The notes: generated by a model from the letters alone, not told the origin. A stretch of DNA of 64,000 nucleotides from Escherichia coli (GCF_050320075.1 NZ_CP190018.1); one strand, 5' to 3'; positions 7,230-29,002 are shown, numbered from the stretch's first letter. Made by a program: numbers and translations.

Positions 7230-8801
7230 TTACTGAGAGCTCAGATCAACTTTCCAGGGCAACAGATCGCGTACCCGGTTTGCCGGCCAGTCCTGGATAT
7301 GTTCAATGACGTAACGCAGCCACTTTTCTGGCTCCACATTGTTCAGACGGCATGTGCCGATCAGCGAGTACAACACCGCCGCATGTTCACCACCGCTGTC
7401 GGAACCCGCGAACATCCAGTTTTTCCGGCCTACGGCCACTCCCCGTAAGGCGTTCTCTGCGATGTTGTTGTCGATTTCCACCCAGCCATTACTGCAGTAC
7501 ACGTTCAGTGCATCCCACTGTTTCAGCAGGTATGCGAACGCTTTTGCCGTATCTGAGTGACGCGACAGTGTTTTCATCTGTTGCTGTATCCAGTCATACA
7601 GTGACTGCATCAGTGGCGCGGCTCTGGCTTTTCTTGCCGCCAGACGCTGTTCTGCTGAACAGCCCCGGACCTCTGCCTCGATGGCATACAGTTCACCGAT
7701 ACGCTGCAGGGCTTCCGTGGTGATGTAGGTGGGCGCTCTTGCATGCACATCGTGGATTTTTCTCCGGGCATGAGCCATACACGCGGCTTCCGTTATTCTG
7801 CCGGATTCGTATAACGCCCGGTAACCACCGTAAGCATCGGCCTGAAGCACACCGCTGTAACCGGCCAGGTGATTTTGTGGATGGATACCTTTCCGGTCCG
7901 GACTGTACGCGAACCAGACCGCCGGGGGCATCTGTGAACCGGCGTTACGGTCATCACGGACGTAGACCCACAGCCGGGCTGTCCGGGTTTTACCGCTGCC
8001 CGGCTCCTGGACCGGGACGGGGATATCATCAGCATGGACTTTACCGGGCATCAGCACATACTGGCGCAGGACGTCATACAGCGGCTCCAGCAGTTCAGCA
8101 ACAGCACCTGTCCAGCGCCCCAGTGTGGCACGGCTCAGCTCCACTCCCTGACGACGGTATATTTCTGACTGGCGGTATAACGGCAGATGGTCTGCATATT
8201 TCCCGGTGACAACATGGGCCAGAAGCCCCGCTCCGGCATAACTGCGTGCAATGGGTTTTGAAGGTACTGGTGCCTGCACGATATGGTCGCACCGGCAACA
8301 GGCCTGTTTCGGACGTTGTGTTTCGATAACCTTAAAGGCGCTGCTGATAAGCTCCAGTTGCTCTGACACATCACATCCCAGAGAACTGAGTTCACCACCA
8401 CAGGCAGGACAGCATTCCTCTTCCGGCCGGATAACCCGGGTTTCACGGGGAAGTGAGGCCGGTAACGGTTTACGGGCTGAAGACTGGCGCAGGGCGGATG
8501 GCAGTACCGGGTCATATTGCTCACCCAGCGTTTCCGCCATTTCTTCCTGAAGTGCGCTGATTCGCTCCTGTGCTTCCTGTATCTGCCGTTCGGTTTTTGC
8601 ACGAAGTTTTTCTGAGCTTTTACCGAACTGCATACGTTGCAGTTTCGCAACCAGCGCCTTCAGCCGGTTGATTTCGGAAGCATAAGCCGCCACCCGCTGT
8701 GAGAGCAGGCGGTTGTATTCAGCCATCTGGCGGATGGTGTCCTGTTGCGTCTGCAACAGTGCCCGCAGGCGGGCGTTCTCATGAGCAAGTGAGGTGTCCA
8801 T
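7230..8801 (-). CDS. tnpC: IS66-family transposase (Orf3/TnpC)
   Basis: 523 aa; N-terminal coiled-coil/leucine-zipper region, CxxC...C zinc-finger-like motifs and IS66 transposase-like core. Confidence 0.85.
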
Positions 8802-23388: not shown

Positions 23389-25794
23389 GTGGATATGGCA
23401 GCAGTAAAAATCTCAGGTGTGCTGAAAGATGGTGCGGGAAAACCAATACAGAACTGCACTATTCAACTGAAGGCAAAGCGTAACAGCACCACGGTACTGG
23501 TGAACACGGTGGCCTCTGAAAATCCGGATGAAGCCGGGCGTTACAGCATGGATGTTGAGTATGGCCAGTACAGCGTCACCCTGCTGGTTGAAGGTTTTCC
23601 GCCTTCGCATGCCGGGAGCATTACCGTCTATGAAGGTTCCAGACCAGGTACGCTGAATGATTTTCTCGGTGCCATGACGGAAGAGGATGTCATGCCGGAG
23701 GCATTGCGCCGTTTTGAGGAAATGGTGGAAGAAGCGGCACGCAACGCCGAAGCCGCCTCTCAGAGCGCAGCGGCGGCAAAGAAATCCGAAACGGCTGCGG
23801 CATCATCGAAGAACGCGGCGAAAACCTCAGAAACGAATGCAGCTAATAGTGCACAGGCGGCAGCGACCTCAAAGACTGCATCGGCAAACTCCGCGACAGC
23901 AGCCAAAAAATCAGAAACCAACGCGAAAAATAGCGAGACAGCCGCAAAGACGAGCGAAACCAACGCAAAGTCCAGCCAGACGGCAGCGAAAACCAGCGAA
24001 ACGAATGCCAAAGCCAGTGAAACTGCGGCAAAAAACAGCCAGGTTGCAGCAGCCCAAAGCGAGAGCGCGGCAGCCGGTTCTGCGACTTCAGCAGCTGGAT
24101 CAGCAACTGCTGCGGCTAACAGCCAGAAAGCTGCGAAGACGAGTGAAACTAACGCAAAGTCCAGCCAGACGGCAGCGAAGACCAGCGAAACGAATGCCAA
24201 AGCCAGCGAAACTGCGGCGAAAAACAGCCAGGTTGCAGCAGCCCAAAGCGAGAGCGCGGCAGCTGGTTCTGCAAGCGCGGCGGCTGCTTCTGCCACTGCA
24301 TCAGCCAACAGTCAAAAAGCGGCAAAAACCAGTGAAACCAATGCAAAGACAAGCGAGACTGCAGCGGCGAACTCGGCGAAAGCATCGGCAGCAAGCCAGA
24401 CAGCAGCTAAAGCAAGTGAAGACGCAGCCAGAGAGTATGCAAGTCAGGCAGCAGAGCCGTATAAATATGTCTTACAGCCACTGCCTGATGTGTGGATACC
24501 GTTTAACGATTCACTGGATATGATTACGGGCTTTTCGCCGTCATATAAAAAAATTGTTATTGGTGATGATGAAATAACGATGCCTGGCGACAAGGTTGTT
24601 AAGTTTAAACGCGCATCAACTGCCACATATATCAATAAATCAGGCGTATTTAGTGTTGCTAAAATTGATGAGCCACGATTTGAAAAAGAAGGTTTATTGA
24701 TTGAAGGACAGCGCACTAACTATTTTGTTAAATCCAATACTCCCGCTGAATGGACGAGTACCAGCAATATCGATAAAACTAATAATGGTGTTGATGAATT
24801 TGGTTTTTCATATGCCAAAATGCGAACAAAAGATAATATGACAGGACAATCATCTGCACTTAGTCTGCATACATGCAGTGCATCCCGGGGGATTGATGTT
24901 AGTGGCGATAATAAGTATTGCACTGTTTCATGCAGGGTTAAAGCTCCTGATGGTCTTCGTTGTCGTTTGCGTTTTGAAAAATACGATGGGTCGGTTTATA
25001 CATTTTTAGGAGATGCTTATTTAACTTTCGGAACTCTGATAATAGAAAAAACTGGCGGAGCAGCCAATAGAATAGCAGCTACTGCAACTAAAGATCCGGT
25101 TACAGGGTGGATTTTCTATGAGGCAACTATAGAAGCTGTTGAAGGTGAAGCCTTAATTGGCGCAATGATTCAGTATGCGCCGAAAAAAGGTGGTATAACT
25201 GAAGCGGGAGATTATATTTACCTTGCAACACCACAATTTGAAAACGGCGGATGTGCTTCATCTTTTGTTATTACGACAACTGCACCCGCAACCCGCTCCA
25301 GTGATATGGTGACGATCCCAACTGAAAATAATATCTATAATAGACCGCTTACGTGTCTTGTCGAGGTCAATAGAAATTGGGGCGATATTCCTCCTAATGT
25401 AGCACCGCGTATTTTTGATTTTTCTGGTGTGCCACCTATTGAGTCAATTACATACGCTTTTAACACAACTGAGAAATATTACGGTCAGCTTTATATACAA
25501 ACTTATAAAGCGTTGACAAGTACTTACGTTTCTAGTGTGTTTGCTGGTCGAACTGATGTTCGAAAATTCATTGGTGGTTTTAATATTTATTCTGATGGTA
25601 CTAAACGAGTAGTTTCTAACGGTGAGGCTACTAAAACTATGAAAACGGAGTGGACGGGCGTAAAAACACGGACCTTTATTCGAATTGGAGGTCAAGCCAC
25701 ATCGGGAACTCGTCATCTATTCGGCCATTTGAGAAATCTTCGTCTCTGGCATAAAGAATTAACTGATGCGCAAATGGGGGAGAGTATTAAATGA
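23389..25794 (+). CDS. stf: side tail fibre protein (Stf-like), chimeric: lambda-like N-terminus, repeat shaft, AT-rich divergent C-terminal domain
   Basis: 801 aa; N-terminal ~100 aa match lambda Stf as recalled (MAVKISGVLKDG...); internal Ala/Ser/Thr/Lys repeats; composition shifts to AT-rich from about nt 24480. Confidence 0.85.
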   Translation: MDMAAVKISGVLKDGAGKPIQNCTIQLKAKRNSTTVLVNTVASENPDEAGRYSMDVEYGQYSVTLLVEGFPPSHAGSITVYEGSRPGTLNDFLGAMTEEDVMPEALRRFEEMVEEAARNAEAASQSAAAAKKSETAAASSKNAAKTSETNAANSAQAAATSKTASANSATAAKKSETNAKNSETAAKTSETNAKSSQTAAKTSETNAKASETAAKNSQVAAAQSESAAAGSATSAAGSATAAANSQKAAKTSETNAKSSQTAAKTSETNAKASETAAKNSQVAAAQSESAAAGSASAAAASATASANSQKAAKTSETNAKTSETAAANSAKASAASQTAAKASEDAAREYASQAAEPYKYVLQPLPDVWIPFNDSLDMITGFSPSYKKIVIGDDEITMPGDKVVKFKRASTATYINKSGVFSVAKIDEPRFEKEGLLIEGQRTNYFVKSNTPAEWTSTSNIDKTNNGVDEFGFSYAKMRTKDNMTGQSSALSLHTCSASRGIDVSGDNKYCTVSCRVKAPDGLRCRLRFEKYDGSVYTFLGDAYLTFGTLIIEKTGGAANRIAATATKDPVTGWIFYEATIEAVEGEALIGAMIQYAPKKGGITEAGDYIYLATPQFENGGCASSFVITTTAPATRSSDMVTIPTENNIYNRPLTCLVEVNRNWGDIPPNVAPRIFDFSGVPPIESITYAFNTTEKYYGQLYIQTYKALTSTYVSSVFAGRTDVRKFIGGFNIYSDGTKRVVSNGEATKTMKTEWTGVKTRTFIRIGGQATSGTRHLFGHLRNLRLWHKELTDAQMGESIK
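23945..24322 (+). repeat. two tandem ~189-bp (63-codon) near-identical repeats inside the stf shaft
   Basis: aacgcaaagtccagccagacggcagcgaa... recurs at 23962 and 24151; embedded in a longer array of shorter AAKTSETNAK-type units. Confidence 0.75.
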
Positions 25795-26072
25795 AAGATT
25801 TAACACTCAAATTTGCAGACAGGGCCGACTTTTCGGCCTTTATGGAGAGCATTGGCTATTATGATGACGAGTCGATGCAGGATGATATTCTTATTGACGT
25901 GATAGGTAATGTGTACAAAGAAACCGGAGAACTGACTGAAGATGGCGAACCGGTATGTGTTAAGGAAGACGGATATTTTGTAAACGTGCGCATCATTAAT
26001 GATTCGCAAATATCGTCAATATTCGATGAATACGTGGTTGCTGTTGAGCATCAACTTCGTGGCTGGATGTGA
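25791..26072 (+). CDS. acidic 93-aa hypothetical protein, translationally coupled to stf
   Basis: ATG overlaps stf stop (ATGA); AT-rich; no family recognised. Confidence 0.55.
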   Translation: MKDLTLKFADRADFSAFMESIGYYDDESMQDDILIDVIGNVYKETGELTEDGEPVCVKEDGYFVNVRIINDSQISSIFDEYVVAVEHQLRGWM

Positions 26073-26081
26073 GGAAGAAAA

Positions 26082-27122
26082 ATGGCTACATCGACAGTAA
26101 TTCCTGATGACATCAAAACGCTAAAATCCGACGTTAGCAAATTAAAAAACGATCAAGGAAGCTACGCAACAAAATTATATGTAGACAGCAAAGATGAAAT
26201 CGTTGGTGACTGGTCTGTTTCATGGTATCAGCAGGTATTGCCAACTAGCGGAGCTATATTTGGGAGAAAACTCCGCTCAACTCACAGGACGGCAGGTGTT
26301 GAGGATGCGTATTGCGAACTATACCTCAAAAAATGGATAGACAGTCCAGGTAACGCAATGGCGCGCCTTAACCTGAACGATAACGGGACAAACATTTGCT
26401 GGGACTTTACCAACCTTTATGGCGGTACGATGATTTTTCCCGGTGACAGCGGATACCTCAAAATGGGTAACTGCCTTATGTCATACAGCAAGCGTGGAAG
26501 TAACGCGCTTATTAAATTTGATTACACCGACACATTACAGATCAAATATGCCAATCATGGGTCAACCATGACATTAAACACACAGGGAACCGCTTATGCT
26601 GGTGTTACTGCTCAATTGTGGGGCAACTCCAGCCGTCCTGTTGTTTATGAAGTCGGTGTTGATGGTGGCGCTTATATGTTCTATGCGCAGAAAAATACCG
26701 ATAACACCTATATGTTAAGCGTTAATGGTGCATGTCATGCCACCGCATTTAACCAGCATTCCGACCGGGATCTGAAAGACAACATTCAGGTGATCGATAA
26801 TGCAACCGACCGCATCCGTAAAATGAACGGCTATACATACACGCTTAAAGAAAACGGTATGCCCTATGCTGGTGTCATTGCACAGGAAGCTCTGGAAGCA
26901 ATCCCAGAAGTTGTAGGTTCCGCAATGAAATATCAGGACGGTGCGAGCGGATCGGAAGGTGAAGAAGGTGAACGTTATTACACAGTAGATTATTCTGGTG
27001 TTACTGGCTTGCTTGTTCAGGTAGCCAGAGAGTCAGACGACAGAATAACAGCACTGGAAGAAGAAAACGCAGAATTAAGACAAAGATTATCTGCAATTGA
27101 TGCGGCGCTTGCGTCTAAATAA
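26082..27122 (+). CDS. tail-fibre-like protein with C-terminal intramolecular chaperone/self-cleaving domain (peptidase S74-like)
   Basis: 346 aa; good SD GAGGAAG before ATG; C-terminal ...NQHSDRDLKDNIQVIDNATDRIRKMNGYTYTLKENGMPYAGVIAQEALEAIPEVV... followed by a coiled-coil tail resembles the autoproteolytic chaperone domain of endosialidase/T5 L-shaped fibre proteins. Confidence 0.65.
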   Translation: MATSTVIPDDIKTLKSDVSKLKNDQGSYATKLYVDSKDEIVGDWSVSWYQQVLPTSGAIFGRKLRSTHRTAGVEDAYCELYLKKWIDSPGNAMARLNLNDNGTNICWDFTNLYGGTMIFPGDSGYLKMGNCLMSYSKRGSNALIKFDYTDTLQIKYANHGSTMTLNTQGTAYAGVTAQLWGNSSRPVVYEVGVDGGAYMFYAQKNTDNTYMLSVNGACHATAFNQHSDRDLKDNIQVIDNATDRIRKMNGYTYTLKENGMPYAGVIAQEALEAIPEVVGSAMKYQDGASGSEGEEGERYYTVDYSGVTGLLVQVARESDDRITALEEENAELRQRLSAIDAALASK

Positions 27123-27158
27123 TATTAAGGGGCCGAGCGCCCCGTTTTATTGGGTAGG

Positions 27159-27458
27159 ATGAAAATGGATATAACACCTTTCCTTCATGCGCTTTGTGCT
27201 GTGGCTGCGCAGCTACTGATTGGTCTTTTTACCGGGAACTGGGCTTACGGGGCGATAGCCGGTTGTACGTTCTTCATTGCGCGTGAACACACCCAGGCAG
27301 AATATCGCTGGATCGAAATGTTCGGGCATGGCAAGCGAATGAATATGCCGTGGTGGGGCGGTTTTGATCCACGCGCGTGGGATGTGGCAAGCCTGATGGA
27401 TTTTGCTGTGCCGGTGGTGGCGTGTCTGCTGGTCTGGCTGTTGGTTAATCGTGGGTGA
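27159..27458 (+). CDS. small hydrophobic membrane protein (2-3 predicted TM helices), function unknown
   Basis: Track ORF begins with TTG at 27150; ATG at 27159/27165 more plausible; hydrophobic stretches [16 protein letters not shown] and [15 protein letters not shown]. Confidence 0.5.
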
Positions 27459-27608
27459 AAAAAGGTGGGCTGTATATGCAACGGAGGAAGAAACCACGTT
27501 GCTGGAAGCCTGGAAGAAGTATCGGGTGTTGCTGAACCGTGTTAATACAACAACTGCACCGGATATTGAATGGCCAACAGTACCCATTATCGAATAGTGC
27601 ATTACGAA

Positions 27609-27670: not shown

Positions 27671-29002
27671 TTATTTTGAGTGAATTATCACCTTGTTTTT
27701 TCCGGTTCTTTTGGCTTGATATAACGCTTTGTCGGCATTGACTAACATTTCAGATGGACTGAGATTATTCTCTTTTGAAGCAAAGCAACCAATACTGACA
27801 GTTATTTTCTCAGGTCCATGCGATAATAATTTTTCCGAGCATTGCTCTTCAATGTTTTTTCTGATTCGCTCTGCAATTGATAGCAAGAGTTTTTGAGTAT
27901 TACCTTTAATGATAATACCGAACTCCTCACCGCCTAAGCGCCCTAATATATCCTCTTTCCTGATGGATTTTTTTATTATTCTGGTAACCATTACTATGAC
28001 TTGATCACCCATATGATGCCCCCATTTGTCATTGATGCTTTTGAAACTGTCAATATCTAACATTATTACTGAGAAATCATGGTGTTTTGATATATTCTTC
28101 AATGAGTCAATAAAGTATCTTCTATTGTATGTATTCGTTAGTGGATCATGAATTGCCATATGATTAGCATGATTTAATTTCCTGAAAACATAATACATGA
28201 GTGTTGAAATGATATAAATCATTGATATCAATTCAAGAAATTTTGTCATGTACCATGCAGGATGGGATTTATCAATAAAATACAATAAAATTAGATTATT
28301 GCATACTGACACTATACTAATAAGTATTATACACAACCATATTTTTGAGTAATTACGTATGCTGATGCATGAGCTGATAAGTAATACAAGCCAAAATACT
28401 GATATTATTTTGGTGTACACGATATTCCACGTCGACAAATGACGATTCAGCGAGTATTGTATAATATTAAGACTATATTTTATATGGTCACTGCTTAGAT
28501 TTTTTGCTACAAACGGAGTAATAAAAAGAATTAATATTGACAAAACAACAATTATTATGTTTCTTTTATCTTCTAAAATACTTTTATTTTTAACATTGGT
28601 GGAATAAACAGCCAGAAAGATTATAGATATAAAGCTGAACTGACGGAATAGATAATATATTGCGATATCATTTGATTTCTGATAGATTGTAGATAAATCG
28701 TTACCTAACGGAGATAAAGAAATAATAGCCACTTCTAATAAATAATACGTGTTGCTCAAAAACGCGAATGAAAGAATTAAGAGATAACTTTGTCTCTGAT
28801 TAGAAACATAGTAAAGCAATAGAAAAATAAAAATCATCAGGTTTATGAAAAAAAGCCCAATAATGAAAACACTATAACTTATTTGTGTTGTTTGTGTTAT
28901 GTATATTCCATTATTTTCATGCAGTAACAAAAATATAATAGAGATGCATGAAAATAAAAAGATGAAGATTTTTATTTTTATAGGTACCTGGTTGATAATC
29001 AT
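27671..29002 (-). CDS. membrane-anchored GGDEF-domain diguanylate cyclase (N-terminal polytopic membrane domain of unrecognised type)
   Basis: 443 aa; SD AGGTG 6 nt upstream; C-terminal GGDEF motifs incl. RKEDILGRLGGEEF (I-site RxxD + GGEEF); about 8 hydrophobic helices N-terminal; extremely AT-rich. Confidence 0.85.
   Translation of the reverse strand: MIINQVPIKIKIFIFLFSCISIIFLLLHENNGIYITQTTQISYSVFIIGLFFINLMIFIFLLLYYVSNQRQSYLLILSFAFLSNTYYLLEVAIISLSPLGNDLSTIYQKSNDIAIYYLFRQFSFISIIFLAVYSTNVKNKSILEDKRNIIIVVLSILILFITPFVAKNLSSDHIKYSLNIIQYSLNRHLSTWNIVYTKIISVFWLVLLISSCISIRNYSKIWLCIILISIVSVCNNLILLYFIDKSHPAWYMTKFLELISMIYIISTLMYYVFRKLNHANHMAIHDPLTNTYNRRYFIDSLKNISKHHDFSVIMLDIDSFKSINDKWGHHMGDQVIVMVTRIIKKSIRKEDILGRLGGEEFGIIIKGNTQKLLLSIAERIRKNIEEQCSEKLLSHGPEKITVSIGCFASKENNLSPSEMLVNADKALYQAKRTGKNKVIIHSK

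Follow-up and report, generated by a model that had tools for sequence, protein, structure and literature searches.

The O-antigen or capsule types that a siphovirus can get past depend on its side and lateral tail fibres, which are also the parts that engineers exchange to retarget phages and phage-derived delivery particles. In the T5-like phage IrisVonRoten (Bas32), Gp22 and Gp24 are described as the proximal and distal lateral fibre proteins, and the C-terminal domain of Gp22 as galectin-like (PMC11990801). Phages DT57C and DT571/2 have branched lateral fibres composed of LtfA and LtfB, an arrangement of two receptor-binding proteins that is experimentally established for DT57C (PMC4728585, PMC10713586). 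In phage lambda, the side tail fibre gene stf is followed by a small gene, the tail fibre assembly gene tfa. Here we describe the stf region of a 64,000-nucleotide stretch of Escherichia coli DNA (GCF_050320075.1, NZ_CP190018.1), referred to below as the window, in which stf is followed by a gene for an acidic 93-residue protein and a gene for a 346-residue protein that ends in a Peptidase_S74 (S74) chaperone domain. On balance, we favour a model in which the locus encodes a multi-polypeptide side fibre, with Stf as the proximal subunit, the 93-residue protein as its partner or joint, and the S74 protein as the tip.

Comparison with described fibre systems

The genes lie at the end of a lambda-like late operon, downstream of those for terminase, portal, tape measure, L, K, I, J and lom. 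Their features, all on the plus strand, are as follows.

23395 to 25794, plus strand: stf, side tail fibre, proximal subunit, 799–801 residues (the open reading frame list begins at 23389; the RefSeq coding sequence starts at 23395)
24478 to 25791, plus strand: Stf head module, residues 364–801 (~440 residues), from PLPDVWIPFNDSL to the last strand HLFGHLRNLRLWHKELTDAQ
25791 to 26072, plus strand: 93-residue acidic protein, phrog_1361 family (six-frame open reading frame list, raw sequence)
26082 to 27122, plus strand: 346-residue protein, most likely the distal tip, phrog_4563 (open reading frame list, PHROG, Pfam)
26082 to 26156, plus strand: N-terminal segment of the putative tip, first 25 codons (MATSTVIPDDIKTLKSDVSKLKNDQ), conserved across phage groups
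26760 to 27119, plus strand: S74 intramolecular chaperone domain, residues 227–346
26760 to 26762 and 26775 to 26777, plus strand: codons of Ser227 and Lys232

The stop codon of stf (TGA, 25792–25794) and the start codon of the 93-residue reading frame (ATG, 25791–25793) overlap as ATGA, and the 93-residue gene is translationally coupled to stf via this overlap. Nine nucleotides (GGAAGAAAA) separate its own TGA from the ATG of the 346-residue reading frame, whose Shine-Dalgarno sequence, GAGGA, overlaps the stop codon of the small gene. The open reading frame list and the raw sequence thus bear out the gene layout given in an earlier reading of the window made from the sequence alone (the original prediction).

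The cassette is homologous to the Gp22-23-24 locus of IrisVonRoten and is a functional analogue of LtfA/LtfB from DT57C. Gene order and spacing are shared with bas32_0022, bas32_0023 and bas32_0024. The proximal fibre of IrisVonRoten has the same head module with the same last strand (GERHLFGHIRNFRIWHKELTD), its middle protein of 92 residues is 39% identical to the 93-residue protein, and Gp24, with a start (MVTKTVIPTDITKLK) like that of the window tip, ends in an S74 chaperone. The two systems differ in their anchors, which are of T5 type in IrisVonRoten (collar protein LtfC) and of the lambda phage_tail_N type in the window Stf. They also differ in the distal protein, which has 574 residues and two receptor-binding domains in IrisVonRoten (a ‘T-shaped’ fibre) as opposed to 346 residues in the window. 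The small IrisVonRoten protein, Gp23, is neither discussed nor modelled in the published study (PMC11990801).

As with the window tip, LtfB of DT57C is a second, S74-bearing fibre protein, and it is held on the virion via LtfA. A natural deletion can fuse the ltfA and ltfB genes of DT57C-type phages, which parallels the fused versions of the window cassette described below. In contrast to the window, where only the tip carries S74, both LtfA and LtfB end in this domain. LtfA lacks a lectin-like head, no small gene is reported between ltfA and ltfB, and the N-terminus of LtfB resembles phiEco32 gp15 rather than the MATSTVIP segment of the window tip. Lambda Stf/Tfa shares with the window the late-operon position after J and lom, a homologous Stf anchor and a small gene directly after stf. 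What sets the window apart from lambda is the lectin-like head at the C-terminus of Stf, a small protein that does not resemble Tfa, an additional fibre gene and the reduction of tfa to a stump.

The three-gene cassette is common in E. coli prophages. A 4.1-kb stretch containing it is 99.5–100% identical in many E. coli chromosomes and is found at full length in 90 complete genomes, and the 93- and 346-residue genes are 97–98% identical in the isolated lambdoid phages Tritos, PhiR63_1, 2G7b and HannyBb. The original prediction had called the module non-canonical. That description has to be given up for a module present in about 90 complete E. coli genomes, several isolated phages and four or five phage groups. 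The cassette sequence can be found in public genomes and phage records, where its annotation is broadly correct. The present analysis mainly confirms what automated annotation gave and assigns the locus to an architecture that is already known.

Homologues of the 93-residue protein occur in 186 phage records, and gene contexts were inspected at about 95 loci. These included the lambdoid phages PhiR49_1, IdasGreatGrand, phage 21, Perceval and Lambda_ev203, the T1-like phages KarlJaspers and BEBK14, the Nonagvirus JenP1, the T5-like phages HMD-P4 and IrisVonRoten, the rV5-like myovirus CarlMeissner (with EmilHeitz seen in the tblastn table only), and five distant genomic and metagenomic loci, L007–L011. 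The small gene begins at the stop of the fibre gene, or a few bases from it, in every one of these named loci. The order fibre gene, ~92-residue gene, S74 gene is found in lambdoid phages, KarlJaspers, BEBK14, JenP1, HMD-P4, IrisVonRoten and L007–L009. The spacer between the small gene and the S74 gene is 2–11 nucleotides long, and is 9 nucleotides except in KarlJaspers and L007–L009; the S74 proteins of L007–L009 have a different N-terminus. No S74 tip gene follows the small gene in phage 21, Perceval, Lambda_ev203, L010, L011 and the rV5-like phages.

The 346-residue protein as a putative distal tip

The Peptidase_S74 family (PF13884) matches residues 227–278 of the 346-residue protein with an E-value of 1.5e-13 and a score of 51.3, covering model positions 1–57 of 58. 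An S74-type C-terminus had been predicted here, and the profile match and the conserved Ser/Lys dyad agree with it. The dyad lies at the start of the domain in the motif S227-D-R-D-L-K232, within NQHSDRDLKDN, with a Ser-x4-Lys spacing. In an alignment of 41 sequences, conservation is 90% or higher at each of S227, D228, R229 and K232. A profile of these 41 tip relatives matches the chaperone region of S16 gp37 (6F45, E 1.3e-9) and the auto-processing domain of MYRF (7DC3, E 6.8e-5). The AlphaFold2 (AF2) monomer has a long C-terminal helix at residues 304–344, with pLDDT (predicted local distance difference test) values of 86–94, in line with the amphipathic coiled coil that had been expected at this end of the protein.

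The domains of K1F endosialidase, T5 pb1 and S16 gp37 share the S74 match, the Ser-x4-Lys spacing, the long C-terminal helix and the location at a fibre end. In contrast to these proteins, the carrier in the window is a short, separately encoded tip without an enzymatic domain, and its cleavage is a prediction. K1F endosialidase and T5 pb1 are cleaved just before the serine. By analogy, autocleavage just before Ser227 is predicted to free a 13-kDa fragment and leave a 25-kDa mature tip.

The PHROG relatives of the 346-residue protein are tail fibre families. Its RefSeq name is ‘tail fiber domain-containing protein’, and the relatives carry PF13884. Since the tip contains an S74 chaperone, it should fold without a separate Tfa. 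The PHROG, Pfam and profile matches thus agree with the original prediction of a fibre or tip protein with its own chaperone. The Pfam scan detected no domain besides S74 in this protein and no recognisable virion anchor domain, and the phage_tail_N anchor is present in Stf only.

Relatives of the 346-residue protein are found as the ends of longer fibres. The Nonagvirus ChristophMerian has a single 633-residue fibre that corresponds to residues 1–251 of the JenP1 fibre followed by the JenP1/window tip from residue 7 to the end. Its residues 334–623 match tip residues 7–339 (E 8e-55), and its fibre locus has neither the head nor the small gene. The fibre of Klebsiella phage KLB26 is similarly fused, with residues 605–852 matching tip residues 58–339. 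The PHROG search further links the tip to the ends of single-chain fibres through phrog_5668 and through phrog_6578 (1210 residues), in which the Stf N-terminus is joined to the C-terminus of the tip. Given the fusion of tip and shaft in ChristophMerian and KLB26, the 346-residue protein is most likely the distal receptor-binding tip of the same side fibre, and a second receptor-binding element of that fibre, as first proposed, is still the best reading of it.

JenP1 (L012) and ChristophMerian (L099) show the split and the fused fibre within one genus. What is missing from the fused form is exactly the head module, the small gene and the initial six codons of the tip, and the difference looks like a clean insertion or deletion of a ‘knee’.

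In the split form, the N-terminus of the tip has the consensus M-[AV]-T-x-T-x-IP-x-DI-x-x-LK, which is common to lambdoid, T1-like, Nonagvirus and T5-like phages. In the window protein it is followed by a short coiled coil, a beta-rich receptor-binding region and the S74 chaperone. The first ~20 residues stay conserved across four groups with unrelated tail tips while the remainder varies, which is the signature of an attachment segment. On this pattern of conservation, the first 25 codons likely encode the site of attachment to the Stf head or to the 93-residue protein.

A different role for the 346-residue protein, either as an independent short fibre or spike elsewhere on the tail or as a chaperone that acts only in trans, seems to us improbable. 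Some tip alleles are short (225–234 residues) and would retain only about 110 residues after cleavage, which is why some annotators describe the protein as a chaperone (BASEL has ‘putative lateral tail fiber chaperone’ for 225-residue versions), and attachment of the protein to Stf is itself a proposal. Against both versions, the protein has no recognisable virion anchor, and the S74 tip is present in four or five phage groups whose tail tips are unrelated, each time right after the head and the small gene. A homologue of the tip forms the covalent distal end of single-chain fibres. To our knowledge, S74 domains act in cis in every characterised case, which speaks against a trans-acting chaperone.

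The Stf head, the 93-residue protein and the proposed joint

Stf matches phrog_1419 with an E-value of 0. Residues 5–134 form the Pfam phage_tail_N anchor (E 4e-66), and residues 5–97 match the Stf N-terminus of Ur-lambda (9E7M, E 3e-48), whose structure was solved on the Ur-lambda tail (PMC12617516). The shaft that follows is Ala-rich and repetitive. Its coding region contains nested tandem repeats with periods of 21, 42 and 189 nucleotides (23895–24366), including a 189-nucleotide unit present in 2.3 copies at 85% identity, and the repeats encode heptad-like repeats rich in Ala, Ser, Lys, Thr and Glu. Stf alleles differ in shaft length (686–868 residues), presumably via these tandem repeats.

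The Stf head module is related to a head spike fibre. A profile built from 10 homologous modules matches Rcc01080, the head spike fibre of the Rhodobacter gene transfer agent RcGTA (6TB9), with an E-value of 2.2e-26, and the NCBIfam model GTA_spike_fiber matches Stf residues 437–637 (E 2.8e-15). Laminin_G_3 (PF13385) matches the window Stf weakly and over its last 62 residues only (E 0.0096), but is found in the heads of relatives at E<=0.001 in 3 of 10 and at E<=0.1 in 9 of 10. A PF13385 match is also precomputed for one distant relative. The head is probably a glycan-binding domain and, judging from gene order, it is the part of stf that travels with the 93-residue gene.

The 93-residue protein is highly acidic, as had been noted, with 21 Asp and Glu against 7 Lys and Arg, an isoelectric point of 4.05, a net charge of about -14 and a mass of 10.7 kDa. 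It matches phrog_1361 end to end (E 1.5e-46), a family with no assigned function. A word-indexed homologue search returned near-identical E. coli copies only, and the diversity of the family comes from an exhaustive profile search of representatives. This search gave 71 clusters at 50% identity, nearly all of them stand-alone proteins of 85–110 residues. In the family alignment, 12 positions are nearly invariant, and a P-x-R-V-W-A motif is conserved at the C-terminus. The median ratio of non-synonymous to synonymous substitution (dN/dS) is 0.285 over 1007 pairs from 47 distinct alleles, and AF2 predicts a confident, compact fold (pLDDT 91, predicted template modelling score 0.78). Given the PHROG match, the many relatives, the dN/dS value and the confident fold, the reading frame is a real gene. 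Candidate gene fusions of the small protein were rejected, since the longer matches arose from frameshifts or fragments or belonged to an unrelated repeat protein (P0303).

Database searches with the 93-residue protein gave no functional relative. There was no Pfam match at E<=10 and no NCBIfam match, and hence no sign of membership of the Tfa family. The PHROG matches comprise two families of unknown function, neither of them a Tfa family. Sequence and profile searches against the PDB stayed at chance level (GAPDH at E 0.04, telomerase p19 at E 0.02), and matches in BFVD were uncharacterised phage proteins only. Literature searches for the protein by RAST name, PHROG number and RefSeq accession found nothing, and the Eligo lambda-engineering preprint, the Hf4s preprint and the RBPseg paper contain nothing specific to the cassette. 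As far as the literature examined shows, the phrog_1361 family and its tight linkage to lectin-headed fibres of siphoviruses and rV5-like myoviruses are undescribed. The phages listed with an rV5-like small-gene allele do not include rV5 itself.

Gene context gives a clearer picture of what the small protein may do. At the loci inspected, the neighbour upstream of its homologues always ends in a lectin-like strand motif, except at the metagenomic locus L011, where the ending is loosely similar. The gene follows a lectin-headed fibre even where the tip gene is missing, in phage 21, Perceval, Lambda_ev203, L010 and the rV5-like phages. By synteny, then, the 93-residue protein appears tied to the lectin-headed Stf, with the S74 tip an optional third part. 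An assignment of the protein as a partner of the 346-residue protein rather than of the head does not fit the phages that have the former without an S74 gene (phage 21, Perceval, Lambda_ev203 and the rV5-like phages). Since viable phages without a tip keep the gene, the protein is not merely an adaptor for the tip.

The original prediction had offered two functions, an adaptor or chaperone and a DNA mimic. The first agrees with the strict linkage to the upstream fibre gene, and the second has lost ground. We regard a DNA-mimic anti-restriction protein, or another anti-defence protein carried in the late operon, as highly unlikely. Small size and strong negative charge are all that favour it; no similarity in sequence or fold to a known DNA mimic such as Ocr or ArdA emerged, with no match in Pfam, NCBIfam or PDB sequences and none to a characterised protein in BFVD. 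The gene is always coupled to that of a lectin-headed fibre, in virulent and temperate phages alike, and expression late, with the structural genes, would come too late for anti-restriction. Its position after lectin-headed fibres even without a tip, together with its being the most conserved part of the cassette, argues for a partner of the fibre head and not a DNA mimic.

Conservation along the cassette was compared over 63 distinct E. coli prophage loci, with relatives found by closer alignment. The 93-residue protein has the highest mean identity of the cassette, at 93%, followed by the first 25 residues of the tip at 86% and the last 30 residues of Stf at 83%. The Stf head has a mean identity of about 60% with a minimum of 27–37%, and the rest of the tip has a median identity of 23%, with two main alleles of 346 and 234 residues. 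Recombination breakpoints are found on both sides of the conserved island. Two hypervariable receptor-binding parts therefore flank a small, highly conserved connector region. As the 93-residue protein stays constant while the variable surfaces of the head change, it would act on the conserved end of the head; by the same reasoning, the conserved N-terminus of the tip would bind something that is itself conserved. The 93-residue protein is probably a head partner that assists assembly and forms part of the socket for the tip.

We propose the following mechanism. Separate polypeptides would make up the side tail fibre, and the region would encode its distal two thirds. The N-terminal domain of Stf would anchor the fibre to the tail tip, followed by the Ala-rich trimeric shaft and by the lectin-like head, a relative of the RcGTA head spike with a concanavalin-like last strand, which would bind a surface glycan. 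The 93-residue protein would be made in step with Stf through translational coupling and would work with the conserved end of the head as a dedicated assembly factor, most likely staying on as the joint socket or helping to form it. The 346-residue protein would trimerise from its C-terminus via its own S74 chaperone, which would then cut itself at Ser227 by means of the Ser227/Lys232 dyad. The mature 25-kDa tip would dock on the head or the 93-residue protein through its conserved N-terminal segment and serve as a second, exchangeable receptor-binding element. What the analysis shows is the gene structure, the domain identities, the conserved dyad, the strict synteny across phage groups, the conserved island and the single-chain versions; trimer formation, cleavage, attachment of the tip, presence of the 93-residue protein in the virion and the receptors are inferred.

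A serious alternative, to which we give a minority share of the probability, is that the 93-residue protein serves solely in the folding or assembly of the lectin-headed Stf. It would then correspond to Tfa in position and be missing from the virion, and the tip would dock directly on the head. This reading overlaps with the proposed mechanism and differs from it only in whether the protein is retained in the virion. The gene lies directly downstream of the fibre gene and is coupled to it, as is typical of fibre chaperones. The protein is present with lectin-headed fibres, with or without a tip gene, and absent with the single-chain, S74-ended fibres of ChristophMerian and KLB26, which implies that each type of fibre C-terminus has its own downstream helper. 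On the other hand, client-specific chaperones usually co-vary with their clients, but the 93-residue protein remains ~93% identical while the head diverges to 27–60%. It also lacks similarity to the Tfa family, and the homologous head has been modelled confidently as a trimer on its own. None of these points is decisive.

The multi-polypeptide fibre that we prefer faces several difficulties of its own. The confident homotrimer that the BASEL authors modelled for Gp22 residues 339–796 does without Gp23 and gives no hint that a partner is needed (PMC11990801). Phages 21 and Perceval are viable without a tip gene, and the case for attachment of the tip to the head or the 93-residue protein consists of synteny, fusion and conservation. 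For the 93-residue family, the literature search turned up neither proteomic nor genetic data on any member. Finally, the AF2 monomer of the tip is poor overall, with a mean pLDDT of 65.7 and no fold match. Foldseek against the PDB gave nothing significant for it, the best fibre match being T4 gp34 at E 0.16. Such a result is expected for an intertwined trimer, and the monomer model is uninformative about the fold.

More tentatively, phrog_1361 may be a widely shared joint protein that, together with the last strand of the lectin-like head, forms a standard socket for tips beginning M-x-T-x-T-x-IP-x-DI-x-x-LK; we hold this broader idea to be possible but doubtful. If it is correct, a single conserved connector allows both receptor-binding parts to be exchanged in lambdoid, T1-like, T5-like and Nonagvirus phages, and a family labelled ‘hypothetical’ in the phage and prophage records examined acquires a function. 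If the 93-residue protein and the N-terminus of the tip do form such a joint, that region would offer a natural splice point for chimeric fibres.

Limits of the exchanged unit and neighbouring genes

The base composition of the locus marks the extent of the exchanged unit. The guanine-plus-cytosine (GC) content of the 93- and 346-residue genes is 0.42–0.455, compared with 0.52–0.62 upstream. The low-GC block starts at ~24400 inside stf, at roughly codon 340, and continues at 0.39–0.455 to 27200. The AT-richness ascribed to the two genes was correctly seen, but its border lies within stf rather than at the stop codon. The unit that was exchanged comprises the Stf head and the 93- and 346-residue genes. 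Three further features follow it on the plus strand.

27129 to 27150, plus strand: GC hairpin with a T-run after it, resembling a terminator, at the close of the fibre operon
27165 to 27458, plus strand: 97-residue two-helix membrane protein, phrog_1443 (predicted helices, PHROG match)
27478 to 27597, plus strand: tfa 3′ remnant, pseudogene, last ~40 codons (RefSeq note ‘incomplete; missing N-terminus’)

Because a C-terminal remnant of tfa survives at 27478–27597, tfa has been truncated rather than neatly replaced, and with an exchange that starts in the middle of stf, the replacement of tfa first envisaged was not a clean one. The stump is a scar left when recombination introduced the module of head, small gene and tip. 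A short tfa fragment is likewise kept in PhiR49_1, further downstream.

The 97-residue phrog_1443 protein is 94–96% identical to its copies in PhiR49_1, IdasGreatGrand and phage 21. Its gene follows the cassette only in lambdoid phages and is absent from the T1-like, T5-like and Nonagvirus versions; in phage 21 it lies directly 3′ of the small gene. The protein could be a moron product, for example an exclusion protein.

Some further observations concern other copies of the cassette. In Tritos (L002), a gene for a Pin-type site-specific recombinase lies just downstream (7976–8566), recalling the invertible fibre segments of Mu, P1 and e14. The 25-kb contig IMGVR_UViG_2724679539_000001 (L068 / L069) contains two copies in opposite orientation, about 8 kb apart, and may represent two adjacent prophages or an assembly artefact. 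Several records named as Campylobacter or Listeria phages carry the small gene of rV5-like or T5-like E. coli phages at up to 100% identity, which suggests wrong labels or contamination in these entries and not a truly broad host range.

A gene for a membrane-bound diguanylate cyclase (27671–29002, minus strand, GC ~0.29) adjoins the prophage end. It is an intact 443-residue open reading frame in the window and is annotated by RefSeq as ‘frameshifted’ at the same locus in strain YZLc1-3, whose sequence does not differ from that of the window up to 27500 or beyond.

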